From assembly GCA_964617335.1 (NCBI GenBank), contig CAZTXG010000002.1, positions 15,912 through 79,911 of the forward strand: a stretch of DNA of 64,000 nucleotides, read 5' to 3'. The DNA comes from an uncultured Oscillospiraceae bacterium (GTDB taxonomy: Bacteria > Bacillota > Clostridia > Oscillospirales > Oscillospiraceae). A program made the position numbers and the translations under genes. The notes beneath the pieces were generated by a model. It was not told where the DNA came from. It made no database searches and saw only the letters and a program-made list of their open reading frames with translations. Below are positions 5,228-25,621 of this stretch, in pieces; positions within the stretch are counted from its first letter, which is position 1, and every line of letters starts with the position of its first letter.

Positions 5228-5281
5228 TCTTTCCTCCTTTTGCTTTATGAAGCAAGAGCCATGGTTTTTTGCTCTTTGGCC

Positions 5282-9544: not shown

Positions 9545-10678
9545 ATGGACTACGGGAAACTATTTGAATCGGATATTTCCAGCGAAGCTGTCAAAAAGTG
9601 GCGGCAGCAGGGGAAAAAGGCCCTTGGAATAATCTGCTGTCATGTGCCGGAGGAAATCTTCCATGCGGCGGGCATTTTGCCTGTTCGCATGAGGGCTACG
9701 GGATGCGTGGATGCCAGCGAGGCTGAAATGTGGATGTCAAGCTTTAGCTGCAGCTTTGCTAAAAGTGTTCTTCAGTATTGGCTCGAGGGCAGATATGAGC
9801 TGGACGGCATTGTGGCTTCTGACGGCTGCATTATGGCCTCGCGCATTTACGACAATGCCGAGTATATTAACCGCACCCGAAACAAAGGGCAAACTATAAT
9901 ACAGATTGCAGCGCCGAGAAAGCACACAGAAAGAACGGTTCCCTTTTATGTGAGCGAGCTTCGTGACCTTATAGAGGCTCTGGAAAATCTGACGGGAGAA
10001 AAGATTACGGAGGAAAAGCTCAGAGCTTCTGTTGAGGTTTATAATGAAGCCAGAGAGCTTATAAAAGAGCTTTATGAGCTGCGAAAAGAAAAAAACCCCG
10101 TAATAAGCGGAGTCGAAGCCCTTCAAATAACTCTGTCTAAAACAAATATGCCCATAGAGGAGTACATAGAACTGCTCAAGGCATTTTTGGCAGACGCAAA
10201 AAACCGCAAGCCTATAGATTCATGGCGGGCCCGCCTTATGATAATCGGCTCTGCTCTGGATGATCCCGAATATCTGCGGGTTATTGAAGATAAGGGAGGG
10301 CTTATAGTCACCGACACCCTCTGCTTTGGCCAAATGCAATTCCGTGACCCAATGGAGCAAAAAGATGATGAAGACATACTCACAACAATTGCCGATTACT
10401 ATCTAAGGCGTGTTGTCTGCCCGAGGATGATGGACGTACATGAGGAGCTTCACGATTTCATAATAAACTCCGTAAAGGAGTTTTCTTGTGACGGTGTGAT
10501 TTATCAAAGGATGCAAAACTGCGAGTGCTGGGGCGGAGAAAACATCCTTCTGGAGAAAAAGCTGAAAGATGCCGGCATACCTCAGATAACGGTTGAACGT
10601 GAACAGCAAATGGCAAATGCCGCCCAGCTTGCGGTGCGGGCCGAAGCATTTATAGAAATGGTGGAAAAGGAGGAATAA
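9545..10678 (+). CDS. BCR / 2-hydroxyacyl-CoA-dehydratase family, small catalytic subunit (BzdN/BcrC/HgdB-like), module 1
   Basis: 377 aa. Cys motifs CCHVP, FSCSF, DGC, CFG, CPR and CECWGGE are shared with the paralogs at 12350 and 17381. AGGAGG RBS. Confidence 0.85.
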   Translation: MDYGKLFESDISSEAVKKWRQQGKKALGIICCHVPEEIFHAAGILPVRMRATGCVDASEAEMWMSSFSCSFAKSVLQYWLEGRYELDGIVASDGCIMASRIYDNAEYINRTRNKGQTIIQIAAPRKHTERTVPFYVSELRDLIEALENLTGEKITEEKLRASVEVYNEARELIKELYELRKEKNPVISGVEALQITLSKTNMPIEEYIELLKAFLADAKNRKPIDSWRARLMIIGSALDDPEYLRVIEDKGGLIVTDTLCFGQMQFRDPMEQKDDEDILTTIADYYLRRVVCPRMMDVHEELHDFIINSVKEFSCDGVIYQRMQNCECWGGENILLEKKLKDAGIPQITVEREQQMANAAQLAVRAEAFIEMVEKEE

Positions 10679-10680
10679 TC

Positions 10681-11973
10681 ATGTCGGAAGTAAAAGATTT
10701 GGAACAGATGGTGTTAGACGGGGAAATGACCATAACGGAATTTGCCTGTGCTAAAGTTGACGGGTCTCTGGAGCGCATGAGGGAAAAACATCCCGAGATG
10801 CTCTGGACAATGGAAATACAAAAATTCATGTGGGACAGCTATAGGGATGTAAAGAAAAACGGTCAAAAGCTTTGCTTTTACGGCGGCTCTGTGCCAACGG
10901 AGATTATAGCCGCCTTTGACTGCCTTGGCTTTTATATGGACACCATACCCTTTCGTCTTTCCACAAACCCGAACCTCACATCTAAATACATAGACGAGGC
11001 GGAAAAATACGTAAGCGCCTCCATGTGCGGCCTTGACAAGGTGGAGCTGGGGGCCTGGCTCTCCGGCGCATACGGCATGGAGCCTGACCTTTTTGTTTAT
11101 AACTCCGTACCCTGCGACAGCTCCAGAGTCGCCTATCCGGCAATGGAGAAAATAATCGGAGTTCCAAGCTTTTCCTTTGACCACCCCTTCCGTCGGGACG
11201 AGCGGGGAGCCGAGTATCTTGCAGACCAGCTGGAAGATTTTATAGAGTTTATGGAAGAACAAACCGGCAAGAAGCTGGATTGGGATAAGCTTAAATATTA
11301 TATGCAAAACGCCAACCGCAACTTTGAGCTTCAGAAAAAATGTGCCGACCTGCGCAAACATAAGCCCTGCCCCCTGCCCGGAAGACTTTTGGTTTTAAAC
11401 GGCACCACAAACGCCGTTGCCTGCTATCCCGAAATGGGCGACCTTTACGAGGGAGAGCTTGAAGCCGGTCAGATGATGATAGACTTAGGGCTAGGTGCCT
11501 GCCCTGATGAAAAATACCGTGTGGGTATGCTGCAAAACATGATTTGGGGCCACGCTAAAATAATGGATTGGATGGAAAGAACCTACAATGCCGTTGCCGT
11601 TATGGACGCCTTTGGTTTTCAGGGAGATATTTATTACGAGCACCTTGATGACAGGCGTGACTGCCTAAAGACCATGGGAAGAAAAATGCAAAACAACCCC
11701 ATGATTCACGGAGCCTCGGGGCCTTCCCGCCATCACTTAGAGCTTGTTGAAAAAATATTTGACGAGTATGACCCCAACGTATCTATGTTCCTGGGTCATG
11801 TGGGCTGCAAACACACCTGGGCCTCATCTAAAATCATAACAGATATGATTCAGGATAAATACGGACTGCCCACCCTTTTTGTTGACCTTGACGCCATCGA
11901 CGGAAGATATAAATCCGGCGATGAAATTAAAGATCAGATATCCGAATACTTTGAAACAGTGGTTATGAAGTAA
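10681..11973 (+). CDS. BCR / 2-hydroxyacyl-CoA-dehydratase family, large catalytic subunit (BzdO/BcrB/HgdA-like), module 1
   Basis: 430 aa, starting 2 nt after the previous stop. Motifs MCGLDK, VPCDSSR, KPCPLPG and GHVGCKHTW are shared with the paralogs at 13489 and 18519. Confidence 0.85.
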   Translation: MSEVKDLEQMVLDGEMTITEFACAKVDGSLERMREKHPEMLWTMEIQKFMWDSYRDVKKNGQKLCFYGGSVPTEIIAAFDCLGFYMDTIPFRLSTNPNLTSKYIDEAEKYVSASMCGLDKVELGAWLSGAYGMEPDLFVYNSVPCDSSRVAYPAMEKIIGVPSFSFDHPFRRDERGAEYLADQLEDFIEFMEEQTGKKLDWDKLKYYMQNANRNFELQKKCADLRKHKPCPLPGRLLVLNGTTNAVACYPEMGDLYEGELEAGQMMIDLGLGACPDEKYRVGMLQNMIWGHAKIMDWMERTYNAVAVMDAFGFQGDIYYEHLDDRRDCLKTMGRKMQNNPMIHGASGPSRHHLELVEKIFDEYDPNVSMFLGHVGCKHTWASSKIITDMIQDKYGLPTLFVDLDAIDGRYKSGDEIKDQISEYFETVVMK

Positions 11974-12017
11974 AAAACAACTCATAACTAAATAGATATC
12001 AACTTATACTTATTTGG

Positions 12018-12049
12018 GGTCAAAAGTACGGATAAACCTATTTTTGACC
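12018..12049 (+). terminator. stem-loop after module 1 (possible weak terminator)
   Basis: GGTCAAAA (12018-12025) pairs with TTTTGACC (12042-12049) across a 16-nt loop. No clean U-tract. Confidence 0.3.
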
Positions 12050-12151
12050 TCAATTTCCAAATCTTTTTACCTATCAAGTTTGTGGTCTGTTGTTCTATTA
12101 TACAATTGCCGTCGTGAAATATGGTTGAATTGCGCAAAATTTAATCGAGAA

Positions 12152-12180
12152 TTGACAATCATCTTTTCTGACTGTAAAAT
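12152..12180 (+). promoter_or_regulatory. sigma-70-type promoter for module 2
   Basis: TTGACA (12152-12157), 17-nt spacer, TAAAAT (12175-12180). Leaves a ~165-nt leader before the ATG at 12350. Confidence 0.6.
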
Positions 12181-12349
12181 GTATCTTGTGTGACTTGGGT
12201 CTATGCGGGCAACAGTCACTCAGCGCGGCTCACTCCCACTTAATTTCGCGCTATTAGTTAAAATTTTACTTATGACAGCGTGACCCTTTAGGGTGTCGGC
12301 GTGTCATAGGATGAAATTATTGCCCCAAGAACAATAAAGGAGGAGACAC

Positions 12350-13468
12350 ATGGATTACCAGAAATTATTCGAAAAAGACATTAACCAGGAGTCGGTTAAA
12401 GCTTGGAGAGCACAGGGGAAAAAGGCCATAGGCTATATTTGCTGTCATGTTCCTATTGAAATTTTGCAGGCACTTGACATTCTGCCCGTTCGCATCAGAG
12501 CAACAGGCGTAACCGAAACCCCCGAGGCAGACACATGGATGTCCACATTCAGCTGCAGCTTTGCTAGAGGTATGCTTCAGCGCTGGATGGACGGCACCTA
12601 TGAGCTTGACGGACTTATCACCAGTGACGGCTGCATGATGTCATCCCGCACCTATGATAACGCAGAGTATCAGGGCAAGGGAGACGGCAGGTTCTATATG
12701 CAGATCGGCGCACCCCGTATGTATAAGGGCGAGCTTGAAAAGAGCTATTACCGTGAAGAGATTGCCGACCTTATAAAGGGTCTTGAGGAGTTTTCCGGCA
12801 ACAAGCTTACAGATGAAAATCTTAAGGCTGCCATAGAGAAGGAAAATAAGGCCCGCGGCCTTATCCGCCAGGTTTTCGAGCTTAGAAAAGCCGAGCATCC
12901 CGTAATAAGCGGCGAGGACGCCCTGCAGATTGCTCTTGCTCACTGCGATTATCCCGTAGATGAGTACATAGCAATGCTTGAGGCATTTTTGGCAGACGCC
13001 AAAAACCGCGCTCCCATCACCGACAGCCGCGCACGTCTCATGCTTATCGGTTCTGCTCTTGATAACGCCGGATACATTAAGGTTATCGAAGAAAAGGGCG
13101 GACTCGTAGTTGCAGACGCAACCTGCTTCGGCAGCAGACCTTTTGCCGCCGATGTTGAAATCAAAGACAATCTTATTGACAGTCTTTCCGAGTTCTATCT
13201 CAACCGTATACTTTGCCCCCGTATGCTTGACAACCGCGTTAAGCTTCAGAAGATGATAGTTGACACCTGTAAGGAATATAACGTACAGGGCGTCATATAC
13301 GAAAAGATGCAGTATTGCGAGTGCTGGGGCGGCGAAAGTCTCTATCTCGAGCCTGACCTTAAGGACATCGGTGTTCCTATGCTTCAGCTTGAGCGTGAAG
13401 AGCATCTTGCAAACGCCGGCCAGCTTGCAATCCGTGCAGAGGCCTTTATCGAAATGATAGAGAACTAA
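12350..13468 (+). CDS. BCR / 2-hydroxyacyl-CoA-dehydratase family, small catalytic subunit, module 2
   Basis: 372 aa paralog of 9545 and 17381 with the same conserved Cys set. AGGAGG RBS. Confidence 0.85.
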   Translation: MDYQKLFEKDINQESVKAWRAQGKKAIGYICCHVPIEILQALDILPVRIRATGVTETPEADTWMSTFSCSFARGMLQRWMDGTYELDGLITSDGCMMSSRTYDNAEYQGKGDGRFYMQIGAPRMYKGELEKSYYREEIADLIKGLEEFSGNKLTDENLKAAIEKENKARGLIRQVFELRKAEHPVISGEDALQIALAHCDYPVDEYIAMLEAFLADAKNRAPITDSRARLMLIGSALDNAGYIKVIEEKGGLVVADATCFGSRPFAADVEIKDNLIDSLSEFYLNRILCPRMLDNRVKLQKMIVDTCKEYNVQGVIYEKMQYCECWGGESLYLEPDLKDIGVPMLQLEREEHLANAGQLAIRAEAFIEMIEN

Positions 13469-13488
13469 GAAAAGGAGGATATAACAAA

Positions 13489-14796
13489 ATGAGTGAAAAA
13501 AAAGTTAGAGATACTAGATTAGAAGACGCGGTAATGCGCGGCGAGCTTTCTGTTTTCGATTTCTGCTGCCAGAAGATTGAAGGACAGATTGAGCGTATGA
13601 AGGAAAGAAACCCCGACCTCCTTTGGACTCTTGACATTCAGTCTGTCATGTGGCACAACTACCGTGACGCTCAGAAGTCCGGTAAGAAGCTTGTCTTCTT
13701 CGGCGGTCCGGTTCCCGTGGATATCATAGTCGCTTTTGACTGTATCCCCGTATACCTTGACACAATTCCCATCCGTCTTTCCCCCAACCCCGTCCTGACA
13801 GGTAAGTTCATCGACTCTGCCGAAAGATATGTTCCCCAGACCACCTGCGGTCTGTGCAAAACCTATCTCGGAACCGCCCTTGAGGACCAGTACGGCTCCA
13901 AGCCCGACGCTTTCGTCTATTCCGCAGTTCCCTGCGACTCCTCCCGTGTTGTTTATCCCAACATGGAAAGATTGTTCGACGTTCCCACCTTCGCTTTTGA
14001 CTATCCCTACCGCCGTGACGCCCGTGGCCACGAATATCTCGTCGCTCAGACCGAGAAGTTCGTTGAGTTCATGGAAGAGCTGACAGGCACAAAGCTTGAC
14101 TGGGAAAAGCTTAAAGTCGCAATGGGCCACTCCAACAACACCTATGAGCTTCAGGGTAAGTGCGCCGACCTGCGTAAGCGTAAGCCCTGCCCCCTGCCCG
14201 GACGTATGCTGGTTCTCAACGGAACCTCCAACGCCATGGCCTGCTTCCCCGAGATGGCAGAGCTTCTCCAGAAGGAGCTTGAAGTCGGCGAAATGCTCTA
14301 TGAGCTTGGCATGGGCCCCTGCCCCAATGGTGAAAAGCACCGTGCGGCCCTTCTCCAGAATATGCTTTGGTCCAGCTCCGGCGTTATGGACTGGCTTGAA
14401 AAAGAATATGATACCGTTGCTGTTATGGACGCCTTCGGCTTCCAGCACGGTGACCTGTATCAGGATCTTGACGATAGGCATCACTGCTTCACCGTCATGG
14501 CAAAGAAGATGCAGAACAACCCCATGATTCACGGTGCCGCAGGCCCCTCCGAGAACTTTGTATACCTCGTAGACAAGATTTTCGAAGAGTACGACCCAGA
14601 CGTATCCATGTTTGTCGGACATATCGGCTGCAAGCACACTTGGGCTTCCGCAAAGATGGTTACCGACATGATTCAGGATAAGTACGGCATTCCCTCTCTG
14701 TATCTCGACGTTGACGGCATCGACGGCCGTTATAAGTCCCCCGACGAGATTAAGGGTCAAATCGCTGAATATATGGACACTGTTGTCAATAAGTAA
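13489..14796 (+). CDS. BCR / 2-hydroxyacyl-CoA-dehydratase family, large catalytic subunit, module 2
   Basis: 435 aa paralog of 10681 and 18519 (TCGLCK, VPCDSSR, KPCPLPG, GHIGCKHTW). AAGGAGG RBS. Confidence 0.85.
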   Translation: MSEKKVRDTRLEDAVMRGELSVFDFCCQKIEGQIERMKERNPDLLWTLDIQSVMWHNYRDAQKSGKKLVFFGGPVPVDIIVAFDCIPVYLDTIPIRLSPNPVLTGKFIDSAERYVPQTTCGLCKTYLGTALEDQYGSKPDAFVYSAVPCDSSRVVYPNMERLFDVPTFAFDYPYRRDARGHEYLVAQTEKFVEFMEELTGTKLDWEKLKVAMGHSNNTYELQGKCADLRKRKPCPLPGRMLVLNGTSNAMACFPEMAELLQKELEVGEMLYELGMGPCPNGEKHRAALLQNMLWSSSGVMDWLEKEYDTVAVMDAFGFQHGDLYQDLDDRHHCFTVMAKKMQNNPMIHGAAGPSENFVYLVDKIFEEYDPDVSMFVGHIGCKHTWASAKMVTDMIQDKYGIPSLYLDVDGIDGRYKSPDEIKGQIAEYMDTVVNK

Positions 14797-14821
14797 GCGA
14801 GGAAAACTACAAAGCCATAAA

Positions 14822-14857
14822 GGGACGGAGGCGCAAAGGCGCTTCCGTTCTTTTTTG
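14822..14857 (+). terminator. rho-independent terminator after module 2
   Basis: GGACGGAGGCGC pairs with GCGCTTCCGTTC (G-U wobbles), followed by TTTTTT (14851-14856). Confidence 0.7.
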
Positions 14858-14957
14858 GGAACTGAAAAATGAAAACCGGCATTGCAAAAATAAGCCTATA
14901 TTTAAGCATATAAAAAGAGCGGGCAATAGTGTATCTCGCATAAAGTGTGGACGTGTC

Positions 14958-15082
14958 TTGACATGGAATTGACACAGTTTTGAAGCGTTATTGACTGTGT
15001 TAGGCAGGATACAACTATTGCGCCTTGACCTTAATTAAAAATTTGATTAAGTCGATATTGCGGAAACGTCTCTTGTCGACAA
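14958..15082 (+). promoter_or_regulatory. candidate upstream activator region (phased TTGAC repeats plus a palindrome)
   Basis: TTGACA at 14958 and 14969, TTGACT at 14991 and TTGACC at 15025, with spacings of 11, 22 and 34 bp. Inverted repeat ACACAGT (14972-14978) / ACTGTGT (14994-15000). Perfect 10-bp palindrome TTGTCGACAA at 15073-15082. All lie 70-190 bp upstream of the -24 element. Confidence 0.35.
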
Positions 15083-15148
15083 AATGTTCCACAAAAATCA
15101 TATACCTAATTTAGCAAGAAGCAACCAAAAAAATAAGAACGAGTAAGT

Positions 15149-15164
15149 TGGCACAAGCTTTGCT
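15149..15164 (+). promoter_or_regulatory. sigma-54 (-24/-12) promoter
   Basis: TGGCAC (15149-15154), 5 nt (aagct), then TTGCT (15160-15164). This is an exact match to TGGCAC-N5-TTGCW spacing. It lies ~80 nt upstream of the ATG at 15246. Confidence 0.75.
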
Positions 15165-15245
15165 CTTTATAATAATAGACCCTAATGTCGTCCCTATACA
15201 AATAGACGGTAAAGGACGGCGTAGCATATAAAGGAGGAAGAAGTA

Positions 15246-16016
15246 ATGATAACCGTTGGAATCGATTGCGGCAGCCAGAACACCAAGGGTGCTGTCCTGA
15301 AGGATGGTAAGGTTGTTGCAAAGACCATAGCTCCCACTGCGTTTGACGCGGATATTGCGGCTGAGAACGTATTAAAGGAACTTTTGGAATCAGCAGGAAT
15401 AAGCAGAGAAGAAGTTGACAGCATTGTTATCACCGGCATAGGACGTGAGTTAGTCAAATGGGGCGACAAGGAAGTCAACGAGGTTGGCGCGGCCGTTCGC
15501 GGGGCGAGATTTGCCCTGCCCGATACGGAAACTGTCATTGACATGGGAGCAGACAGCTGCCGTGTAATCCGTCTCAACCCGGACGGAACAGTTATGAAGT
15601 ACGAGGCAAACGACAAGTGCGCCTCTGGAGCAGGCACCTTTATAGAGGCCATGGCTCGGGCGCTTCAAATAACCACAGAGGAAATGGGCGACTTTTCCCT
15701 GCGCCACACCAAGGATTTAGCAACCAACGCCCAGTGTGTTGTTTTTGCAGAGTCCGAGGTCATTTCCCTCATCCACGCCAAAGAAACCCGAGAGGACATA
15801 GCTTTCGGCGTACATATGGGAATATCGAACCGCATAGCGTCTATGATCCGCAGGGTGGGCCTGACAGACAAATACACCATGATAGGCGGCCCCGCTTATA
15901 ACAAGGGTCTTGTCCGCTGTATGTCCGATGTTTTTGAAAGAGAAATCAGAGTACCCGAGGATAACCAGCTTCTCAGCGCTATAGGCGCTGCGATCTTCGG
16001 CACGGAGAATAAGTAA
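15246..16016 (+). CDS. BadF/BadG/BcrA/BcrD-family ATPase (BzdP/BcrD/HgdC-like), divergent copy
   Basis: 256 aa. N-terminal actin-fold phosphate-1 motif MITVGIDCGSQNTKG. Bridging-cluster Cys candidates are NDKCASGAG and NAQCVVFAESE. The phosphate-2 motif is degenerate (DMGADSCRV). Confidence 0.85.
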   Translation: MITVGIDCGSQNTKGAVLKDGKVVAKTIAPTAFDADIAAENVLKELLESAGISREEVDSIVITGIGRELVKWGDKEVNEVGAAVRGARFALPDTETVIDMGADSCRVIRLNPDGTVMKYEANDKCASGAGTFIEAMARALQITTEEMGDFSLRHTKDLATNAQCVVFAESEVISLIHAKETREDIAFGVHMGISNRIASMIRRVGLTDKYTMIGGPAYNKGLVRCMSDVFEREIRVPEDNQLLSAIGAAIFGTENK

Positions 16017-16032
16017 ACGGAGGTAAGAAACC

Positions 16033-16932
16033 ATGGCTGAAATAGAAAAAGTAGAATATTGGAGATGGAAGGAATCCAACTGGAAAAACCCTGACATCCC
16101 TGACTGGCACGGAAGCCTTATAACCGCCGGTGTAGATATCGGCTCTACCAGTACCCAGGCTGTTATCATGGCCGACGGCATACCCTATGCATATTCCAAC
16201 ATGAGAACCGGCTCTAACAGCCCCGATTCCGCAATCGACGCGATTAACTGGGCAATGAAGGACACCGGATTGACACTTGAGGATATAACCTATACAATAG
16301 GTACGGGATACGGACGTGTAAACGTACCCTTTTCCAACAAAACCGTAACAGAAATAACCTGCCACTCAAAAGGCGCAAACTTTATTTACGGACCTACCAC
16401 CCGCACGATTCTCGATATGGGCGGACAGGACTGTAAAGCCATACACTGCGATGAAAACGGCGCTGTTACATCTTTTATGATGAACGACAAGTGCGCTGCC
16501 GGTACAGGCCGCGGCATGGAAGTTATTGCAAACCTTCTTGCTGTCCGTGTTGAGGATATCGGCAGGATGTCCTTTGAAATCGATGAAGAGCCGCCCCCGG
16601 TTTCCTCCACCTGTGTTATTTTCGCAAAAAGTGAAGCTACAAAGCTTATGCGTGCAGGCTGGACAAAGGAAAAGGTTCTGGCGGCATATTGTCATGCTAT
16701 GGCACTGCGTGTTGTGCGCCTTCTCGAGCGTAACGGCATGGAGCTTGACTTCGCCATCACAGGCGGTATTGCCAAGAATATAGGCGTTGTAAAACGCATA
16801 GAACGACTAATGGGAGTTACCGCTCTTGAACCTAAATGGGACACCCAGATTGCCGGCGCAGCCGGTGCTGCTCTTATTGCCAAGGACCTTGTTGAGAGAA
16901 AAAGAGCCAGAGAGGCAGTTGCAGCAAAATAA
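16033..16932 (+). CDS. BadF/BadG/BcrA/BcrD-family ATPase (BzdQ/BcrA/HgdC-like) with a Trp-rich N-terminal extension
   Basis: 299 aa. Motifs GVDIGSTSTQ, DMGGQDCKAI, NDKCAAGTGRG and SSTCVIFAKSE. Carries a ~35-aa N-terminal extension (EYWRWKESNWKNPDIPDW). Confidence 0.85.
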   Translation: MAEIEKVEYWRWKESNWKNPDIPDWHGSLITAGVDIGSTSTQAVIMADGIPYAYSNMRTGSNSPDSAIDAINWAMKDTGLTLEDITYTIGTGYGRVNVPFSNKTVTEITCHSKGANFIYGPTTRTILDMGGQDCKAIHCDENGAVTSFMMNDKCAAGTGRGMEVIANLLAVRVEDIGRMSFEIDEEPPPVSSTCVIFAKSEATKLMRAGWTKEKVLAAYCHAMALRVVRLLERNGMELDFAITGGIAKNIGVVKRIERLMGVTALEPKWDTQIAGAAGAALIAKDLVERKRAREAVAAK

Positions 16933-16995
16933 GGGACAAAGCTTATACACAGAACCTTGAGAACTAAAAGTGCAAGATGGAAGGAGGCGAAAGCC

Positions 16996-17271
16996 GTGAT
17001 AGCAAACTATGGCTATGAGGACGGTTCCGGTCACTATTACATCAAGATAGACACCGCCAAATGTGCCGAGTGTTCTGACAAGCCTTGTATAAAGGCGTGT
17101 CCGGAGCAGCTTTACGTTACAGAACTGGATGATTTTGACGACGAAGTTATAATCATACGGGAAGATGCCCGCAACACCTTGCAAACAAACTGCGCTAACT
17201 GCAAAGCCGACCAAAAAACGGAGCTTTGCAGACAAGTCTGTCCCTCGGACGCTATTGGATTCTCATGGTGA
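16996..17271 (+). CDS. 2x[4Fe-4S] ferredoxin (BzdM-position; extended Cys spacing)
   Basis: In-frame GTG at 16996, 8 nt after AGGAGG (16982-16987); the ORF track starts at 16957. Motifs are CAECSDKPCIKACP (Cx2Cx4Cx3CP) and CANCKADQKTELCRQVCP (Cx2Cx8Cx3CP). Confidence 0.8.
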   Translation: MIANYGYEDGSGHYYIKIDTAKCAECSDKPCIKACPEQLYVTELDDFDDEVIIIREDARNTLQTNCANCKADQKTELCRQVCPSDAIGFSW

Positions 17272-17380
17272 GAAGCGCCACATCAAATTTTAACTTTCGG
17301 ATGCCCCGGCACCCTGGGCCAAGCCGGGATATCCGAGAGCTTTAAAATTACCTTTTCCAATAACATAAAGGAGGAAACAC

Positions 17381-18502
17381 ATGAGTTACCAGAAATTATT
17401 CGAGACCAAAATTTCAGGCGAAGCCGCAAAAGCTTGGCAGGCACAAGGCAAGAAAGCCATAGGTTATGTATGCTGTCATGTTCCTGAAGAAATCTTCTAT
17501 GCGGCGGACGTTCTCCCCATCCGCCTTCGGGCAACGGACTGCGTTGACAGCAGCGAGGCGGAGGCATGGATGTCCAGCTTCAGCTGCAGCTTCGCACGCT
17601 CGATTCTCCAGTATCTTATCGACGGCACCTATAAGCTTGACGGTCTTGTACAGACTGACGGCTGCATGATGCCCGCCCGCATTATGGACAACTGGGAGCA
17701 TATTTCCGAGAAGGAAGGAAAAAACCAGTTTACCCATTTTATAGGCGCTCCCCGCATAACAAACGATATTTCTATCGGATTCTACAAGTCTGAGCTTCAG
17801 GAGCTGGTTGATGCCGTTTCTAAATTCTCCGGAGTTGAGATTACAGACGAGGCTCTTAAGGCAGCTATTGTCAAGACCAACGAAATGCGCGCCCTTATAG
17901 ACCAGGTTTATGAGCTGCGCCGTGCGGAAAATCCCGTTGTTTCCGGTGCCGAAGTTCTCTCCATCACCCTCGCCGAGTGCGACCATCACATTGACGACTA
18001 TATCCAGATGCTCAAGGATTTCCTCGCAGACGCGAAAAACCGCAAGCCCATCGAGGCTCGCGCACGTCTTATGATTATTGGCTCCGCTCTTGACAACCCC
18101 GAATACATAAAGGTTATCGAGGAAAAGGGCGGCCTTATAGTTGCAGACGACCTCTGCTTCGGCAGACGTGCTTTCGGCCCCCAGCTTGAAGTTGATGACA
18201 GTGATGTTCTCGGCTCCATTGCAAAGTACTATCTTGAGCGCAACGTATGTCCCCGCAGTCTGGACAACCGTCCTACTATGCATAAGGAAATCGCCGACAT
18301 CGCTAAAGAATACAATGTTCAGGGCGTTGTTTACCAGAAGATGCAAAACTGCGAATGCTGGGGCGGAGAAGCTTATTATCTGGAGCCTGACCTTAAGGAC
18401 ATCGGCATTCCCATGCTTCAGCTTGAGCGTGAGGAGCAGATGGCAAACGCAGGTCAGCTCGCGGTTCGTGCCGAAGCTTTCATCGAAATGTTAGAGAAGT
18501 AA
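17381..18502 (+). CDS. BCR / 2-hydroxyacyl-CoA-dehydratase family, small catalytic subunit, module 3
   Basis: 373 aa paralog of 9545 and 12350 with the same Cys set. AGGAGG RBS. Confidence 0.85.
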   Translation: MSYQKLFETKISGEAAKAWQAQGKKAIGYVCCHVPEEIFYAADVLPIRLRATDCVDSSEAEAWMSSFSCSFARSILQYLIDGTYKLDGLVQTDGCMMPARIMDNWEHISEKEGKNQFTHFIGAPRITNDISIGFYKSELQELVDAVSKFSGVEITDEALKAAIVKTNEMRALIDQVYELRRAENPVVSGAEVLSITLAECDHHIDDYIQMLKDFLADAKNRKPIEARARLMIIGSALDNPEYIKVIEEKGGLIVADDLCFGRRAFGPQLEVDDSDVLGSIAKYYLERNVCPRSLDNRPTMHKEIADIAKEYNVQGVVYQKMQNCECWGGEAYYLEPDLKDIGIPMLQLEREEQMANAGQLAVRAEAFIEMLEK

Positions 18503-18518
18503 GAAGGAGGAATAAATA

Positions 18519-19844
18519 ATGGCTAAACCTAAACAGAACTTTGACCCGACAAAGCCGGTTAATATGATAGAGCTTACCTGTGAGCAGGTTGACAGTATTT
18601 ATCAGCATATGCTTTCAAAGGGTATGCCCGAAATCATGTGGACCGTTGAAATTCAGAAGTTCACATGGGAAGAAGTCCGTGACGCTGCGAAAAACGGCAA
18701 AAAGCTTGTTGCCTTTGGCGGTCCGGTTCCCGTTACCATCATCCGTGCTTTTGACTGCGTTCCTTTCTTCCTTGATACTATCCCCACCCGTATCGCTTCC
18801 ATGGAAGACCTCTGCGGACGCTTTATTGACGAAACTGAAAAGTTTGCTCCCCAGAGTATGTGCGCTATCGACAAGGCACAGCTTGGTGTTATGCTCAAGG
18901 GCGAACTTGGCGTTAAGGTAGACGCCTTTGTTCACGCCACCGTCCCCTGCGACTCTGCCCGTATTGCCTATCCCCTTATGGAGCGTCTTATGGACTGCCC
19001 CAGCTACACCTTTGACTGCCCCTTCCGTCATGACGACAAGGGCTTTAAGTATGTAGCAGACCAGATTGAAGCCTTCATCCCCTTCATGGAAGAGCTTACC
19101 GGTCTTAAATGGGACGACGAGCGCAAGGCGAAGTTTAAACAGATAAACGAAGAGTCCAACAAGGCTTATGAGCTGCTTATCCAGCTTGCCGAGCTCCGCA
19201 AGAAAAAGCCCTGCGTACTTCCCGGACGTATGCTCGTTCTTAACGAGATTATCGCTCCTCTTGCTGGAACCCCTGAAGTTACCGAAATGCTCCAGACTCA
19301 GCTTGACATGGGCAATATGCTTGCCGACATGGGAATGACCGCCACAAGATGCCCCGAGGAGCGTTATCGTGTATGTCTCATGCAGAATATGCTCTGGTCA
19401 AACACCGGCATCATGGACTGGATGGAAAAGACCTATGGCGCTATCACCGTTATGGACGGCTTCGGATATCAAGACGGCGTAATTATTCAGGATCTCGACA
19501 ACTGGGAAGCTGTTAAGTATCAGACCGCTAAGTCTATGCTTCTTGTTCCCATGATTCACGGTGCCACCGGCCCCACTGAATACTGGCTCAAGGTCATCGA
19601 TAAGATGTACGAGGAGTTCGGCGTAAACGTATCCATCTTCATGGGTCACGTTGGCTGCAAGCACACTTGGGCATCGGGCAAAATCGTCACCGACTACATC
19701 CAGGAAAAGTATGGTTTACCCACCCTGTATGTGGACGTCGACGCAATCGACCCCCGCTACAAGTCAAACGACGAGCTGCGTGCGCAGATCGGCGAATACA
19801 TGGAATCCGTTGTGGGAGCACATAACTTCACAAAGGAAGCCTAA
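18519..19844 (+). CDS. BCR / 2-hydroxyacyl-CoA-dehydratase family, large catalytic subunit, module 3
   Basis: 441 aa paralog of 10681 and 13489 (MCAIDK, VPCDSAR, KPCVLPG, GHVGCKHTW). AAGGAGG RBS. Confidence 0.85.
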   Translation: MAKPKQNFDPTKPVNMIELTCEQVDSIYQHMLSKGMPEIMWTVEIQKFTWEEVRDAAKNGKKLVAFGGPVPVTIIRAFDCVPFFLDTIPTRIASMEDLCGRFIDETEKFAPQSMCAIDKAQLGVMLKGELGVKVDAFVHATVPCDSARIAYPLMERLMDCPSYTFDCPFRHDDKGFKYVADQIEAFIPFMEELTGLKWDDERKAKFKQINEESNKAYELLIQLAELRKKKPCVLPGRMLVLNEIIAPLAGTPEVTEMLQTQLDMGNMLADMGMTATRCPEERYRVCLMQNMLWSNTGIMDWMEKTYGAITVMDGFGYQDGVIIQDLDNWEAVKYQTAKSMLLVPMIHGATGPTEYWLKVIDKMYEEFGVNVSIFMGHVGCKHTWASGKIVTDYIQEKYGLPTLYVDVDAIDPRYKSNDELRAQIGEYMESVVGAHNFTKEA

Positions 19845-19868
19845 GCACCTTAAACTAAAAGAAAAATG

Positions 19869-19902
19869 CCGTGACCGCGGGAAATTAATTCTGCGGTCAC
19901 GG
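19869..19902 (+). other. 10-bp stem-loop between module 3 and the CooC-like gene
   Basis: CCGTGACCGC (19869-19878) pairs with GCGGTCACGG (19893-19902) across a 14-nt loop. No U-tract follows, so it is probably a processing or stability element rather than a terminator. Confidence 0.3.
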
Positions 19903-19944
19903 TACATAGAAAACAACCTTTTTTAGAAAAGCGAGGGACCAAAA

Positions 19945-20706
19945 ATGGAAAAAATTAAAACTATAGCTGTCACAGGAAAAGGCGGAACCGGAAAAACCGT
20001 TGTATCCACCCTTCTTATCCGCGCTTTAAGCGAGCGCTTCCCGGGCAAGGTTCTCGCGATTGACGCGGACTCGGCTATGAGCCTGTGCTACACCACCGGA
20101 CTTAAGGTTGAAAAAACCGTAAGTAATCTCCGCACCGAACTTTTGGGTTCACGGCATGCCCGCGAGCAGCTTGATGCCGGCCCCACAAAAAACCTTATGC
20201 GCGGCATACTTGCCCATGGTGACGGCTTTGACCTTCTGACCATGGGAAGGCCTGAGGAGCCGGGCTGCTTCTGCGCCTGCAACGAGCTTCTCCGCTACGG
20301 AATTGACACCCTTATAGAGGACTATGACTATTGCATAGTTGACGGCGAAGCCGGCCCCGAACAGCTCAATCGCCGGGTTATGAAAAGTGTTGACCTGCTG
20401 CTGGTTATGGCGGATATGTCCGCTAGAAGCCTTCAGACTGCTGCAGGCATACTTGAAGTCGCCAAGGGCGGCGAAAACAACATAGACGTTAAGCAGGCAG
20501 GCCTTGTATTAAACCGCGTTCGCGGCGACGAGCCGAAGGATGAGCTTTTGAAAAAGGTTGGCCTTGAAGTATTGGCAGAGCTGCCTGAGGATGCCCTTGT
20601 CAACAAATATGACCGTGACAGCACTTCTCTCTTTGAGCTGCCCATGGATAGTGCCTGCCCCACAGCCATCCGTGAAATGCTGAAAAAGCTGATACCTGAG
20701 TTTTAA
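19945..20706 (+). CDS. CooC/AcsF-type MinD-family P-loop ATPase (metallocentre maturation factor-like)
   Basis: 253 aa. Deviant Walker A with signature Lys (TGKGGTGKTVVS). CxC-containing motif EEPGCFCACNELL, as in CooC nickel-insertion ATPases. Confidence 0.7.
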   Translation: MEKIKTIAVTGKGGTGKTVVSTLLIRALSERFPGKVLAIDADSAMSLCYTTGLKVEKTVSNLRTELLGSRHAREQLDAGPTKNLMRGILAHGDGFDLLTMGRPEEPGCFCACNELLRYGIDTLIEDYDYCIVDGEAGPEQLNRRVMKSVDLLLVMADMSARSLQTAAGILEVAKGGENNIDVKQAGLVLNRVRGDEPKDELLKKVGLEVLAELPEDALVNKYDRDSTSLFELPMDSACPTAIREMLKKLIPEF

Positions 20707-20730
20707 GCTGTACAATTAAGGAGTAAGCAC

Positions 20731-21081
20731 ATGAGCAAGACAGCGGCGCAAGGCGCACAGGAAAACCACAACCATTCCCGGGTCACGATTCACAGCCACG
20801 GCGAAAATGGGGTTCCCCATGTCCACACCAACAAAAAGGCGGTGCTGGGCCGTCTCGCTAAGGCGAGGGGGCATCTTGATTCCGTTATGACCATGATAGA
20901 AAACGACAGGGATTGCGCTGAGGTTTTAGTGCAAATTGCAGCCGTCCGGTCAGCGATAAATAATGCCGGCAAGGTTATTTTGCAGGACCATATCGCGGAA
21001 TGTGTCATAGAAGCGGTTTCCTGCGGTGACTATGAAAAAATAGAGGACCTTAACAAGGCAATAGAACGATTTATGAAGTAA
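20731..21081 (+). CDS. CsoR/RcnR-family (DUF156) metal-sensing transcriptional repressor with a His-rich N-terminal extension
   Basis: 116 aa. Core is KKAVLGRLAKARGHLDSVMTMIEN. Cys-25 residues-His-3 residues-Cys arrangement (DRDC...QDHIAEC), as in the x-C-H-C CsoR fingerprint. N-terminus is ENHNHSRVTIHSHGENGVPHVH. Confidence 0.8.
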   Translation: MSKTAAQGAQENHNHSRVTIHSHGENGVPHVHTNKKAVLGRLAKARGHLDSVMTMIENDRDCAEVLVQIAAVRSAINNAGKVILQDHIAECVIEAVSCGDYEKIEDLNKAIERFMK

Positions 21082-21107
21082 AAAAGCATAAAGCAAATAA
21101 ATAAGGT

Positions 21108-21171
21108 AGGTATACGCGAGGCTGTGATTTGGTCACAACACTCAAAAAGCGTATACCTTCTCTTATTTTTT
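21108..21171 (+). terminator. terminator candidate after the CsoR-like gene
   Basis: AGGTATACGC (21108-21117) pairs with GCGTATACCT (21149-21158). The loop contains an inner hairpin TGTGA/TCACA. A T-run follows at 21165-21171. Confidence 0.5.
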
Positions 21172-21645
21172 GCACAAAATTGTCTGTATGGCCAAGTCTC
21201 GGTTGCAATTATATTAAATTTAGTATAAGATGATAACCATGTTAAATATAATTGAAAAGCAGCTTAAGAAGTGTTATGCTGTGGCATTTAAATCAGGAAA
21301 AATCAATTTGGGTTTTTCCAAAGGGGGAATATATAGGGAAGTATGTAAAAAGTAATAAAGGAAAGTGCCGAAATATTCGAAATTGCATTGAGATTCCCCG
21401 CCATTAATAGCATTTAGCGGTCTCTTCATTGGACATGTTTACGAAATATTTTGCATCTTATCTTATATTATCTACAAACATTGCCCGCAAGTTAAATATC
21501 GATTGCATTTGTTAAATTTTTAGTTTAGAATTAACTGAGTGCAGATATTGACATTTCGACTTCGATTATTTCGAAAAGAGCATTTTCCTCGGGAAAAAGC
21601 GAGAGATTTCACTATCAATATGTATATGGTAAAGGAGTTCAAATT

Positions 21646-23091
21646 ATGGCGAAAAGAAATCTTAGCGGTGACTGGAAGCAGCACTACAAGGACCATCTCA
21701 TTACCTTGGAGGAAGCTGTTGACAAGCTTGAAGACGGGGACTGTGTATTTTTAGGACAGGCCACCATGAATCCCCTGGCCTTCCTTGATGCTATCTACGA
21801 AAAGAAAGACAAGTTCAAGAACCTCGGTTTCTGGTACAATGTCATGAGCGGCCCCGCAAATATGGTTTTCGATCCTAACGCAAAAGATCATTTCAAGCTT
21901 CGCAGTATCTATCAGCTGCCCATTGAGCGTATGGCTATCGACGAAGGCTCTATTCAGGTTCTCGGCTCCGGCTACGACCAGTACGAATACAGTATGTGGG
22001 AAAACGGCGTTAACACCACCGCCCTCACCTACTGCCCTCCCGATGAAAACGGCTGGTGCAACTGCGGCTGCTATGGCGTCTGCACAAACAACACCATCTC
22101 CCGCGACCCCCGCGTGGTGAAAAAGTTTGCTTTTATTGACAAGACCGGTGTTTATCCCGCTCCTGGTCCGGAAGAGGAAATAAGCGTTCACATTACCGAC
22201 TTTGACTACATAATCGAGCTTGACACAGAAATGCTTGAGATTCCTTCTCCTCTGCCCACACCGGTTGATGAGAAAATCGGCTCATACATCATTCCCTACC
22301 TCAGAAACGGTGACAAGATTCAAATCGGCTACGGCGGTCTTGGTGAAATTATAATCAAGTCCCTTAACGATTTCTCCGGCACCTTCGAAATATTCTCCGA
22401 GGTACTTTGTGACAACATGGTTCCCATGGTTGAATCCGGCAAGGTTACGGCCCTTTATGCTTCCAGCCCCGGCGGCTGCAGTGAGGCAACCTTTAAATGG
22501 CTTGCAACCACCGACAAAGACGTTCGTCTTTATCCGAGAACCCTCTGCATAGATCCTCTTGGAGTTATGGAGCAGGAGAACATGGTTGCCATTAACTCCA
22601 CCTTTATGTGCGACCTTCTCGGTCAGTGCTGCTCTGAAGCTCAGGGCCTGCGCCCCTACACCGGCATGGGCGGCTCTTTGGCATACATCTACGGCTCACA
22701 GCGTTGTAAGGGCGGCCGCAGCTTCATCTGCCTGCGCTCCACATATAAGGACGCAAACGGCGAAAGACAGTCCAACGTTCAGCCCTGGCTGCCCGAAGGC
22801 AGCATAGTCTCCATGCTGAAAAACTATGTTATGTTCCTGGTTTCCGAATGGGGCGTAGCAGACGTTTACCTCAAGACCTATCCCGAGAGAATCAAGGCCA
22901 TCATCAAGATTGCCCATCCGGACTTCCGCGAGTGGCTGAAAGAAAAGATTCTCACCACACCTCTTATTGACGAAAAGGATTTAGTAGGCTACGATATGTT
23001 TGACGAAAAAATACCCGAGCCCAGACAGCCGGCAACCTGCGTTCCCTTCAGACAGTATGAGTTCCCCATCCGTGATGACATGGAAAAATAA
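21646..23091 (+). CDS. acetyl-CoA hydrolase/transferase-family (family I) CoA-transferase, 4-hydroxybutyrate CoA-transferase (Cat2/AbfT)-like
   Basis: 481 aa. The N-terminus (ITLEEAVDKLEDGDCVFLG), a PPDENGW block, a candidate catalytic Glu in FSEVLCDN, a GMGG motif and the C-terminal IAHPDFREWLKEK all align by eye with my recollection of AbfT. Confidence 0.8.
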   Translation: MAKRNLSGDWKQHYKDHLITLEEAVDKLEDGDCVFLGQATMNPLAFLDAIYEKKDKFKNLGFWYNVMSGPANMVFDPNAKDHFKLRSIYQLPIERMAIDEGSIQVLGSGYDQYEYSMWENGVNTTALTYCPPDENGWCNCGCYGVCTNNTISRDPRVVKKFAFIDKTGVYPAPGPEEEISVHITDFDYIIELDTEMLEIPSPLPTPVDEKIGSYIIPYLRNGDKIQIGYGGLGEIIIKSLNDFSGTFEIFSEVLCDNMVPMVESGKVTALYASSPGGCSEATFKWLATTDKDVRLYPRTLCIDPLGVMEQENMVAINSTFMCDLLGQCCSEAQGLRPYTGMGGSLAYIYGSQRCKGGRSFICLRSTYKDANGERQSNVQPWLPEGSIVSMLKNYVMFLVSEWGVADVYLKTYPERIKAIIKIAHPDFREWLKEKILTTPLIDEKDLVGYDMFDEKIPEPRQPATCVPFRQYEFPIRDDMEK

Positions 23092-23103
23092 GCTTAAATC
23101 TAG

Positions 23104-23134
23104 AAACCGCGGCGAAGTTTTTCGCCGCGGTTTT
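23104..23134 (+). terminator. rho-independent terminator after the CoA-transferase
   Basis: AACCGCGGCGAA-gttt-TTCGCCGCGGTT, followed by TTTT. Confidence 0.8.
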
Positions 23135-23214: not shown

Positions 23215-23247
23215 AAACAACAAAGTCTTTTGAGAGGCGTTAGCAAA

Positions 23248-24789: not shown

Positions 24790-24793
24790 GCAT

Positions 24794-25621
24794 ATGGACT
24801 TTATAGGACTTGACGAAATTCTTTTAAATGCCCTTCGTGAGGATATAGGCACAGGAGATTTGACAACCATTTCCTGCATTCCGGCAGAAAACCGCTCCGA
24901 AGGTGTTTTCATTGCGAAAGAAGACGGGGTTTTGTGCGGTCTTGAAATTGCCGCCAGGGTCTTTGCTCTTGTGGACAAAGACATAAGCCTCGCCCTTTTG
25001 AAAAAAGACGGAGACAAGGTGAGTAAGGGAGAAGTTTTCGCCGAAATATCAGGCCCATCTCGTGGCATACTCACAGGGGAGCGGGTGGCATTAAACCTTA
25101 TGCAGCGCCTTTCCGGCACGGCCACAGCGGCAGAAAAGGCAGCCCAGGCAGTTTCGGGCACAAAGGCCCGAGTGGTTGACACAAGGAAAACAAGCCCCGG
25201 CCTGCGTGTTCTGGAAAAATACGCAGTCAGAACAGGAGGCTGCTATAACCACCGCTTTAATCTGGCAGACGGAGTTTTAATTAAAGATAACCATATAAAA
25301 GCGGCAGGCAGCATTGAAAAGGCAGTTCTAGCCGCAAGAAATGCCGTCCCCCACCTTATGAAAATAGAGGTGGAAACGGAAAACCTTTCTCAGGTACAGC
25401 AGGCTCTTGACGCAGGGGCGGACATTATCATGCTGGATAATATGACAAATGAGCAGATGGCGAAAGCTGTGGAGCTTGTAAACGGACGTGCCATAACCGA
25501 GGCTTCGGGGAATATGGGGGAAAAAGACCTTCACGAGGTGGCAAAAACAGGGGTAGACTTTATATCCATAGGCGCCTTGACCCACAGTGTAAAGGCCATG
25601 GATATTAGCCTTAAGTTTTAG
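24794..25621 (+). CDS. nadC: nicotinate-nucleotide diphosphorylase (quinolinate phosphoribosyltransferase)
   Basis: ATG at 24794 after GGAGGA, 4 nt past the nadB stop. Motifs: LNALREDIGTGDLTT, RVALNLMQRLSG, DTRKTSPGLR, IMLDNM. Confidence 0.9.
   Translation: MDFIGLDEILLNALREDIGTGDLTTISCIPAENRSEGVFIAKEDGVLCGLEIAARVFALVDKDISLALLKKDGDKVSKGEVFAEISGPSRGILTGERVALNLMQRLSGTATAAEKAAQAVSGTKARVVDTRKTSPGLRVLEKYAVRTGGCYNHRFNLADGVLIKDNHIKAAGSIEKAVLAARNAVPHLMKIEVETENLSQVQQALDAGADIIMLDNMTNEQMAKAVELVNGRAITEASGNMGEKDLHEVAKTGVDFISIGALTHSVKAMDISLKF

Follow-up and report, generated by a model that had tools for sequence, protein, structure and literature searches.

The gene cluster at positions 9545-23091 of the DNA analyzed here, a 64-kb window (64,000 nt) from an uncultured Oscillospiraceae bacterium, raises the question of which reaction is catalyzed by three tandem pairs of enzyme subunits that are encoded next to one pair of ATPase genes, and whether the one ATPase module serves all of them. 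All coordinates are positions in this window, and the window alone was seen of the host genome. A preliminary description of the DNA had reported three pairs of a small (S) and a large (L) subunit, two ATPases, a ferredoxin (Fd), a CooC-like protein, a CsoR-like protein and a coenzyme A (CoA)-transferase, and open reading frames (ORFs) as well as Pfam and NCBIfam searches agreed with it. All cluster genes were intact ORFs on the plus strand, with the same coordinates as in that description:

9545-10678, plus strand: S1, small subunit of pair 1, 377 aa; PF06050, E 1.3e-88
10681-11973, plus strand: L1, large subunit of pair 1, 430 aa; PF06050, E 3.5e-57
12350-13468, plus strand: S2, small subunit of pair 2, 372 aa; PF06050, E 1.7e-78
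13489-14796, plus strand: L2, large subunit of pair 2, 435 aa; PF06050, E 1.5e-55
15246-16016, plus strand: AtpP, ATPase subunit 1, activator-like, 256 aa; PF01869 (BcrAD_BadFG), E 6e-44
16033-16932, plus strand: AtpQ, ATPase subunit 2, BzdQ/MbdQ-like, 299 aa, with an N-terminal extension; PF01869
16996-17271, plus strand: ferredoxin, 91 aa, GTG start, 2x[4Fe-4S]; weak Fer4 matches in 16957-17271
17381-18502, plus strand: S3, small subunit of the core (putatively ancestral) pair, 373 aa; PF06050, E 4e-81
18519-19844, plus strand: L3, large subunit of the core pair, 441 aa; PF06050, E 9e-51
19945-20706, plus strand: CooC-like P-loop ATPase, 253 aa; CbiA/NifH-like matches
20731-21081, plus strand: InrS-like protein of the CsoR/RcnR family, 116 aa, His-rich N-terminus; PF02583, E 1.6e-25
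21646-23091, plus strand: CoA-transferase, divergent member of the acetyl-CoA hydrolase/transferase family, 481 aa; PF13336, E 5.5e-39

The answer that is favored here, with moderate confidence, is that the cluster represents an uncharacterized branch of the superfamily of benzoyl-CoA reductases (BCR), 2-hydroxyacyl-CoA dehydratases (HAD) and double-cubane cluster proteins (DCCP), and that it would encode a ferredoxin-fed, ATP-driven two-electron reductase of acyl- or aryl-CoA thioesters with exchangeable catalytic modules. Three features weigh most in favor of a reductase, i.e., the strict double-cubane signature of the small subunits, the BzdQ-type heteromeric ATPase and the in-operon ferredoxin. 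Gene content, motifs, fold, conservation and synteny were observed directly. The HGD-D family (PF06050) was found in all six catalytic subunits, with E values of 1e-78 to 1e-88 for the small and 1e-51 to 1e-57 for the large subunits, and the searches with PF01869 were also positive, in agreement with the earlier assignment to a BCR/HAD-type system. Membership in the superfamily is indicated by the HGD-D fold together with a BcrAD ATPase that has two Cys in cluster-type motifs.

The cluster was compared with 51 related loci. A scan with one genome per species yielded 49 loci, which were mapped by tblastn and ORF clustering, and the complete genomes of Desulfitobacterium dichloroeliminans and Eubacteriaceae bacterium ES3 as well as a short contig of Clostridium sediminicola were added by look-up. 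A homologue with 71% identity, encoded on a 604-kb contig, shares the cluster architecture, and the gene order is repeated in dozens of genomes with 60-90% protein identity, so that the arrangement is not due to chance. The conserved core is AtpP-AtpQ-Fd-S-L-CooC. It was found in metagenome-assembled genomes (MAGs) of Oscillospiraceae from digesters, sludge, groundwater, rumen and termite gut, and also in Lachnospiraceae, Eubacterium, Enterocloster, Gracilibacteraceae, Anaerovoracaceae/Family XIII, Desulfovibrio MAGs and Desulfitobacterium; the gene-order survey that had been proposed thus revealed that the core order recurs across Clostridia and beyond. The family is nevertheless small, with 93 representatives (E <= 1e-30) among 1.84 billion 50%-identity cluster representatives, and public records give these proteins generic names only.

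The small subunits S1 to S3 are mutually 55-59% identical and the large subunits L1 to L3 49-61%, indicating that the copies are old paralogues and not recent repeats. The Cys motifs that had been listed for both subunits were all present and invariant in the three copies. In the structure of BzdNO the [8Fe-9S] cluster of BzdN is bound by C36, C73, C100, C263, C293 and C327, and the [4Fe-4S]-OH2 cluster of BzdO by C95, C128 and C380 (PMC11971306). The best PDB match of S1 was BzdN (8s02_B, 1e-40), and HMMER alignments placed its C31, C69, C95, C260, C292 and C326 on the six BzdN ligands. These six Cys are kept in 53 of 53 non-redundant members of the S family, including S1 to S3, whereas HadC lacks two of them (Pro and Ala instead) and MbdN lacks three. 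S is therefore predicted to be the carrier of an [8Fe-9S] double cubane. In addition, the S family has invariant residues of its own, namely C32, H33, R48, R50 and W329.

The small subunits do not belong to the BzdN, MbdN, HadC or DCCP groups. They reached 128-154 bits with the NCBIfam model of BzdN (cut-off 453.8), and their highest NCBIfam score, 175-181 bits, was obtained with the DCCP model NF040772 (cut-off 350). With the HadB and HadC equivalogs neither S nor L exceeded 161 bits (cut-offs 750 and 700). In the neighbor-joining tree the S family was monophyletic relative to BzdN, MbdN, HadC and DCCP and was placed outside all four. DCCP and its reductase DCCP-R (Carboxydothermus hydrogenoformans; PDB 6eno, 7yyl) have the six-Cys [8Fe-9S] motif and the ATP-driven electron delivery by a BcrAD-type protein in common with the cluster. 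However, DCCP consists of two copies of a single subunit and is served by a homodimeric ATPase, while S and L form hetero-pairs, by prediction, and are accompanied by two different ATPases; unlike the cluster, DCCP lacks CoA-related genes as well as a substrate subunit of its own with three Cys.

The ATPase genes are also informative. AtpQ scored 396.5 bits with the bzdQ model TIGR03192, above the equivalog cut-off of 380.2, and it is the only protein of the cluster that passes a Bzd cut-off. Its best PDB match was MbdQ (9gai_D, 189 bits), and it is 65-97% conserved across the related loci. AtpP reached 227.7 bits with TIGR00241 and is 30% identical to AtpQ. The presence of two different ATPase subunits and a dedicated ferredoxin, which had been claimed before, was thus verified. 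The AtpP and AtpQ genes are neighbors wherever a locus includes the two of them. AtpP has two Cys in the motifs NDKC and NAQC, and NDKC and (Q/T)C motifs are present in both ATPases; by analogy with HgdC, we take them to be the ligands of a bridging [4Fe-4S] cluster.

The ferredoxin contains the Cys motifs CxxCx4CxxxCP and CxxCx8CxxxC. Its start is probably the GTG at 16996, behind the ribosome-binding site GGAAGGAGG, and the resulting length of 91 aa was also seen in more than 20 orthologues. At most loci the gene is situated between AtpQ and S, with unchanged Cys spacing of the low-potential type, and the in-operon location at nearly all loci suggests a stoichiometric supply of electrons. 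At the ES3 locus (L053:8458-9803, CP130741.1), transposase-looking ORFs on the opposite strand take the place of the Fd gene between AtpQ and S, and this cluster may be disrupted.

Next, the large subunits were compared with characterized proteins. They keep the three cluster Cys. C116 and C145 of L1 align with C95 and C128 of BzdO; the alignments with BzdO itself stop before residue 380, and C376 was matched via MbdO, whose corresponding cluster Cys was taken as BzdO C380. L is thus predicted to be the substrate-binding subunit with a three-Cys [4Fe-4S] cluster. The AlphaFold2 model of L1 had a pLDDT of 86.9, and in Foldseek searches it matched BzdO, MbdO, HadB and DCCP with TM values of 0.74-0.78 (0.77-0.78 for BzdO, HadB and MbdO) and a probability of 1.00. 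MbdO was the top match of L1 with Foldseek as well as HMMER, over nearly the full length. The profile of the L family was roughly equidistant from the four proteins, with 75 bits for DCCP, 73 for HadB, 70 for BzdO and 59 for MbdO. NCBIfam scores were at most 44 bits for the BzdO model (cut-off 448.6) and, as the highest value for L, 51-57 bits for the DCCP model. The L family lies outside BzdO, MbdO, HadB and DCCP and has the invariant residues C230, H343 and H373. The MbdONPQ system, a 3-methylbenzoyl-CoA reductase (Thauera chlorobenzoica; PDB 9g87/9gai), provides the top matches of both L1 and AtpQ, but the identity is only 18-19%, MbdN has three fewer of the double-cubane Cys than the S proteins, all of which keep six, and Mbd has one catalytic pair.

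In BzdO, Glu65 and His131 act as acid/base, the ring is surrounded by Trp46, Tyr97, Leu302 and Leu383, and the thioester oxygen is held by Tyr97, Tyr298 and Gln274 (PMC11971306). Asp87 of L occupies the place that the catalytic Glu has in MbdO and HadB and, via these alignments, probably corresponds to Glu65. Asn286 is found at the position of Gln274.

Several points weigh against the reductase interpretation. First, His131 of BzdO is replaced by Ser or Ala in L, Tyr97 by Leu or Ile, and Glu381-Gly382-Leu383 by Lys-His-Thr. Given the loss of His131, Tyr97 and Leu383, a chemistry other than arene reduction may be catalyzed, and benzoyl-CoA-type ring reduction, which had been considered at the outset, is not backed by conserved catalytic residues or a conserved ring pocket. 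The same replacements speak against the explanation that the pairs are genuine Bzd-type class I benzoyl-CoA reductase isoenzymes for benzoate or substituted benzoates in the degradation of aromatic acids. AtpQ above the BzdQ cut-off, BzdN as the best PDB match of S1 and the presence of the double-cubane Cys are in accordance with such isoenzymes, and crotonase, FadB-like, thiolase and ligase genes flank the relatives in Desulfitobacterium and Eubacteriaceae ES3. However, the S and L scores are far below the BzdN and BzdO cut-offs, neither BzdN nor MbdN falls into the S clade, the crotonases of the relatives are below the cut-off of every crotonase-family model, and dch/had/oah-type genes were not found in the window. 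We regard isoenzymes of this kind as very unlikely.

BzdNOPQ with its ferredoxin BzdM (Aromatoleum/Azoarcus; PDB 8s02) is among the closest known systems. Both systems have two HGD-D subunits, two different BcrAD ATPases, a dedicated ferredoxin, six [8Fe-9S] Cys in the small and three active-site [4Fe-4S] Cys in the large subunit, an ATPase subunit that passes the BzdQ model and, likely also here, CoA-thioester chemistry. In contrast to BzdNOPQ, S and L of the cluster are placed outside the BzdN/BzdO clade, Glu65 is probably replaced by Asp, AtpP is not BzdP/MbdP-like, several catalytic pairs go with one ATPase pair, genes for CooC-like and InrS-like proteins are included, and the hosts are fermenters or strict anaerobes. 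The gene order N-O-P-Q-M also differs from the order P-Q-Fd-S-L of the ancestral unit. A bzdNOPQM order had been noted at 12350-17271, but it is coincidental: the ancestral unit, which is conserved, is P-Q-Fd-S3-L3-CooC, with pair 2 as a separate transcription unit.

Second, the best PDB match of AtpP was HadI (4eht, 191 bits), a homodimeric activator, and MbdP was only fourth (129 bits), so that AtpP is closer to the dehydratase activators than to MbdP. Third, a CoA-transferase and genes for an acyl-CoA dehydrogenase (ACAD) and an electron transfer flavoprotein (EtfBA) are present beside S-L in some single-pair relatives (L047, L025/26, L028), a layout that mirrors the hadAIBC-acdB-etfBA dehydratase operons and resembles the fld operons. 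Fourth, a stoichiometric use of ATP is costly for fermenters such as Oscillospiraceae. Fifth, the trees are distance-based (neighbor-joining), with four characterized outgroups (BzdN, MbdN, HadC and DCCP fragments from PDB alignments), and HgdAB, FldBC, LcdAB, BcrBC and BadDE were left out. Sixth, further ATPases may be encoded outside the 64-kb window.

The second to fourth points would fit the main alternative, in which the S-L pairs are radical dehydratases or other ketyl-radical enzymes without net redox change, of the kind represented by the 2-hydroxyacyl-CoA dehydratases. AtpPQ would then be an activator that delivers one recycled electron, and the three pairs would dehydrate different 2-hydroxyacyl-CoAs supplied by CoA-transferases. 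The profile score of L, which is as good with HadB as with BzdO, the TM value of 0.78 to HadB, the acid residue Asp87 at the position of the HadB Glu and the CoA-transferase in the cluster agree with this, and a catalytic use of ATP would suit fermenters. Reductase and dehydratase cannot be distinguished by sequence alone. Nevertheless, dehydratases are considered rather unlikely. The six-Cys motif is present in all 53 S proteins and incomplete in HadC, the ATPase is encoded by two different genes, of which one scores as a BzdQ equivalog, in place of a single gene for a homodimeric activator, a dedicated ferredoxin gene belongs to the operon at nearly all loci, and the HadB/HadC equivalog cut-offs are missed by far. 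Furthermore, the window contains no 2-hydroxyacid dehydrogenase, ACAD or Etf gene. S and L were also placed outside HadBC, the sole dehydratase included in the neighbor-joining trees. (R)-2-Hydroxyisocaproyl-CoA dehydratase HadBC with HadI (Clostridioides difficile; PDB 3o3m, 4eht) thus shares the fold with the cluster, as well as a CoA-transferase and the features just described for AtpP, Asp87 and ACAD/EtfBA, but its operon has no ferredoxin, CooC-like or InrS-like gene.

Oscillospiraceae loci contain two, three or four S-L pairs, and the extra pairs are located upstream of the core. Across the related loci one to four S-L pairs, and in addition lone L genes, were found per exactly one ATPase pair. 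No BcrAD ATPase besides AtpP and AtpQ was present in the 64-kb window, and no second ATPase pair was detected within 10 kb on either side at the multi-pair Oscillospiraceae loci. Comparative genomics thus fits the proposal, made before, that one ATPase module serves several catalytic pairs. By the neighbor-joining tree pair 3 is the ancestral pair, because L3 and its orthologues join the branch of single-pair systems from other families; the S3 orthologue group is always located directly 3' of the Fd gene. S2 forms a separate orthologue group across Oscillospiraceae and L2 a group of its own, and likewise pair 1 and the further pairs are separate orthologue groups that are kept across genomes. 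In Desulfitobacterium the pair was duplicated independently, and its two S copies fall into one 90%-identity cluster.

The catalytic motifs are almost identical across the paralogue groups and the single-pair systems. Residues specific for paralogue groups were found at L positions 315, 119, 346, 91 and 70, and position 315, which aligns with Leu302 of BzdO, is Gly, His and Asp in pairs 1, 2 and 3, respectively. Near-identical motifs with few group-specific positions are the pattern that would be expected for one chemistry with different substrates.

It could also be that only the core AtpPQ-Fd-S3-L3-CooC works with this ATPase, and that pairs 1 and 2 are served from elsewhere, redundant or silent. 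Pairs 1 and 2 are indeed in separate putative transcription units with promoter-like sites of their own, a terminator-like element follows pair 2, and the view of the genome is restricted to 64 kb. However, the orthologue groups of pairs 1 and 2 are intact in many genomes, with 60-90% identity and always beside the single ATPase pair, their cluster ligands and catalytic motifs are invariant, and the loci with two to four pairs have no second ATPase pair within the 10 kb on either side. The lone L genes without S also argue for a mixing of modules. The absence of sharing is thus judged to be improbable.

Lone L genes were seen in L004:1671-2963, L013:1654-2946, L049:252-1544 and 1687-2970, and L021:4643-5971, and they belong to separate paralogue groups. 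A gene for an old yellow enzyme (OYE)-like flavoprotein (333 aa) precedes the lone L in L013 and adjoins an extra L in L048. This hints that L may borrow an S partner, and that an enoate or dienoyl-CoA reductase may act downstream. A two-pair version of the cluster is present in the cultured Desulfitobacterium dichloroeliminans LMG P-21439 (L052, CP003344.1, 740245-761390; cluster at about 747-761 kb). Its gene order is sigma-54 activator, AtpP, AtpQ, Fd, crotonase, S, L, CooC, S', L', CoA-transferase, FadB-like, thiolase and AMP-ligase, and IS66 elements are located directly upstream.

The most distinctive conserved feature of the family is the presence of the CooC-like and CsoR-like genes. 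They are not bystanders. The CooC-like gene is located 3' of the core L, with at most one small ORF in between, at all of the about 35 loci with downstream sequence. The best PDB match of its product was CooC1 (3kje, E 3e-13, 53 bits). The deviant Walker A motif GKGGxGK[ST] (here GKGGTGKT) and the motif EEPGC[FY]C were found in 31 of the 31 orthologues that cover them, and the sequence CFCAC aligns with CYC of CooC1, which we take to be the metal-binding motif of that protein. The deviant Walker A motif and the CxC are common to the nickel-insertion ATPases CooC and AcsF. On this basis, the CooC-like ATPase is a probable maturation factor for a metallocluster. Its similarity to CooC1 is low. 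As no gene for carbon monoxide dehydrogenase (CODH) or acetyl-CoA synthase (ACS) was found near the cluster, the most simple client would be the S-L enzyme itself.

The CsoR-like gene comes next at every Oscillospiraceae locus with sequence for this place and at three further loci. Its best PDB match was the cyanobacterial nickel sensor InrS (5fmn, E 3e-19). H32, C62, H87 and C91 align with H21, C53, H78 and C82 of InrS, as was checked on the 5fmn sequence, and these are presumably the four Ni(II) ligands of InrS. The C-H-C triad and a His-rich N-terminus (7-17 His) were present in 19 of 19 orthologues, and a PHVH motif within the first 45 residues in 16 of them. The H-C-H-C positions are thus shared with InrS, and the protein may be a nickel sensor. 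As far as is known, InrS controls nickel efflux and not an enzyme operon. One exact site of the CsoR-type operator pattern ACCC-N4-GGGT was found at 12283, upstream of S2, but the pattern was not enriched (12 matches versus 19 expected). An Rfam scan of the whole window revealed no riboswitch, NiCo included, in or near the cluster, and only two T-box leaders at 47 kb. In two Gracilibacteraceae loci an extremely His-rich protein of 175-183 aa with HEHxHEH repeats (L025:6187-6714, L026:733-1284) is encoded directly upstream of the sigma-54 activator that belongs to their operon version; it may be a metal store or chaperone in place of the InrS-like protein.

The conservation of nickel-type helper genes suggests a novel cofactor or a novel chemistry within the enzyme family. 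BzdNO from a heterologous E. coli host contained the [8Fe-9S] cluster in its structure (PMC11971306). Therefore, a special maturase is not evidently needed for the double cubane, which leaves room for a heterometal. It is conceivable, although doubtful, that the family is the first branch of the BCR/HAD/DCCP superfamily that depends on nickel or another heterometal. In this case the CooC-type ATPase would insert Ni into or beside an Fe-S cluster of S-L, and the InrS-like sensor would permit expression only when Ni is available. Candidates for extra ligands would be residues that are invariant and specific for the family, in the small subunits C32-H33 and W329, in the large subunits C230, H343, H373 and K377-H378. 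Full-text literature searches retrieved no description of the architecture, as had been stated before, and none of a link between CooC or InrS and the superfamily. The isoprene reductase of Acetobacterium wieringae (PMC10134865) was followed as a lead and was dropped, as it is an unrelated enzyme with HypAB.

The genes around the enzyme were inspected for clues to the substrate. The CoA-transferase at 21646-23091 reached 153 bits with the butyryl-CoA:acetate model (cut-off 675). At the downstream position the related loci contain one to three divergent Cat2/But-like CoA-transferase paralogues. In Oscillospiraceae loci CoA-transferases are the only such genes besides the enzyme, and several of these loci have two ScpC-like genes upstream. 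In one- and two-pair loci of other families the neighbors include crotonase, FadB-like hydroxyacyl-CoA dehydrogenase/hydratase, thiolase and AMP-forming ligase, and furthermore a Pct/YdiF-like transferase, ACAD with EtfBA, and sigma-54 or LuxR regulators. The remaining neighbors of the relatives are mostly regulators (sigma-54 activators, LuxR, PucR). It had been noted that genes of a downstream pathway are absent. For the window this was correct, as it contained no homologue of acyl-CoA dehydrogenase, Etf, crotonase, thiolase, aryl-CoA ligase or 2-hydroxyacid dehydrogenase, but it does not hold for the single-pair relatives, which have crotonase, FadB-like, thiolase, ligase and ACAD/EtfAB genes alongside. 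An assignment of the substrate from the neighbors was tried and rejected, as the CoA-transferases, crotonases, ACAD, thiolase and OYE-like protein of the relatives are below the NCBIfam equivalog cut-offs; the sole neighbor that reaches its cut-off is the upstream ScpC-like succinyl-CoA:acetate transferase in L001. The neighbors make CoA-thioester substrates in inducible catabolic or reductive pathways very likely, and they do not identify the acid.

For a reductase with exchangeable modules the following course of events is proposed. An organic acid would be loaded onto CoA by the CoA-transferase. The Alvin-type ferredoxin would reduce the [4Fe-4S] cluster that bridges the predicted AtpP/AtpQ heterodimer, and ATP hydrolysis would push the electron into an S-L heterodimer. 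There, S would store electrons on the [8Fe-9S] double cubane, and L would bind the thioester beside its three-Cys [4Fe-4S] cluster. The three S-L pairs would be alternative substrate modules with the same catalytic machinery and few differing pocket positions, and they would dock transiently on the single ATPase/Fd module. The CooC-like ATPase would mature a metal site of S-L, and the InrS-like protein would couple expression, or metal supply, to the availability of the metal. Heterodimer formation, sharing of the ATPase, the electron path, CoA esters as substrates and the functions given to the latter two proteins are predictions from sequence comparison.

The cluster looks like about four transcription units, i.e., S1-L1, S2-L2, AtpP-AtpQ-Fd-S3-L3-CooC-CsoR and the CoA-transferase. 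This is based on terminators, a hairpin, an inverted repeat and promoter-like sites. A hairpin with a T-run at about 14819-14855, terminator-like by eye, follows L2 and a 450-bp gap follows pair 2, a terminator-like inverted repeat (21093-21173) is located 3' of the InrS-like gene, and promoter-like sites were found ahead of S1, S2 and AtpP. A strong terminator at 23103-23134 (14-pair stem, 8 pairs GC) marks the end of the cluster, with nadB and nadC beyond it. These two genes (23230-25621) were considered as partners and rejected, since the strong terminator lies in between and the adjacency is found only in the closest relatives L003 and L035. nadB encodes an L-aspartate oxidase, and the adjacency is probably lineage synteny and not a functional linkage. 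Antisense ORFs of up to 413 aa inside S and L (13519-14760, 17414-18346 and 10714-11361, all on the minus strand) were taken as shadow ORFs; comparable ones recur at related loci (clusters c9, c11, c25).

The G+C content of the cluster is uniform with that of its flanks, and the remaining window contains housekeeping genes (htpG, metG, mnmA, mnmG, leuB- and leuC-like). Upstream, at 4514-7677 on the minus strand, a radical SAM protein of 487 aa, a PRK/uridine-kinase-like P-loop protein of 369 aa and a hexapeptide transferase are encoded, and a second radical SAM paralogue, 32% identical to the first, is found at 30877-32103. An ABC ATPase followed by a 679-aa ORF without a Pfam match (39473-42260) resembles the ABC-2-type permease/ATPase pair (c6/c17) that is located downstream of the cluster in many Oscillospiraceae loci. 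Two divergent T-box leaders above the Rfam gathering threshold (47201-47444, minus strand, 97 bits; 47711-47976, plus strand, 113 bits) are flanked by ORFs of 501 aa (45642-47147, minus strand) and 554 aa (48119-49783, plus strand), near the leuB/leuC-like genes.

Taken together, the cluster defines a coherent, conserved and unstudied branch of ATP-driven Fe-S radical enzymes in anaerobes of digesters, rumen, termite gut, sediment and groundwater. Enzymes of this type perform some of the hardest biological reductions, such as arene dearomatization and ketyl-radical dehydration, and only a handful has been characterized. A plug-in design is suggested, with one ATPase/ferredoxin unit for several substrate modules, in contrast to the fixed heterotetramer of the known class I BCRs. 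In addition, the cluster is the first link of the BCR/HAD/DCCP superfamily to nickel machinery of the CooC and InrS type, and it points to a possible new cofactor. If the heterometal proposal is true, this would be a new Ni-Fe-S, ATP-driven reductase platform, on which paralogous L or S-L modules broaden the range of substrates. Desulfitobacterium dichloroeliminans LMG P-21439, as a cultured and fully sequenced host, offers an experimental entry point, and the substrates, once identified, could reveal unknown aromatic, alicyclic or hydroxy-acid routes in anaerobic carbon cycling.

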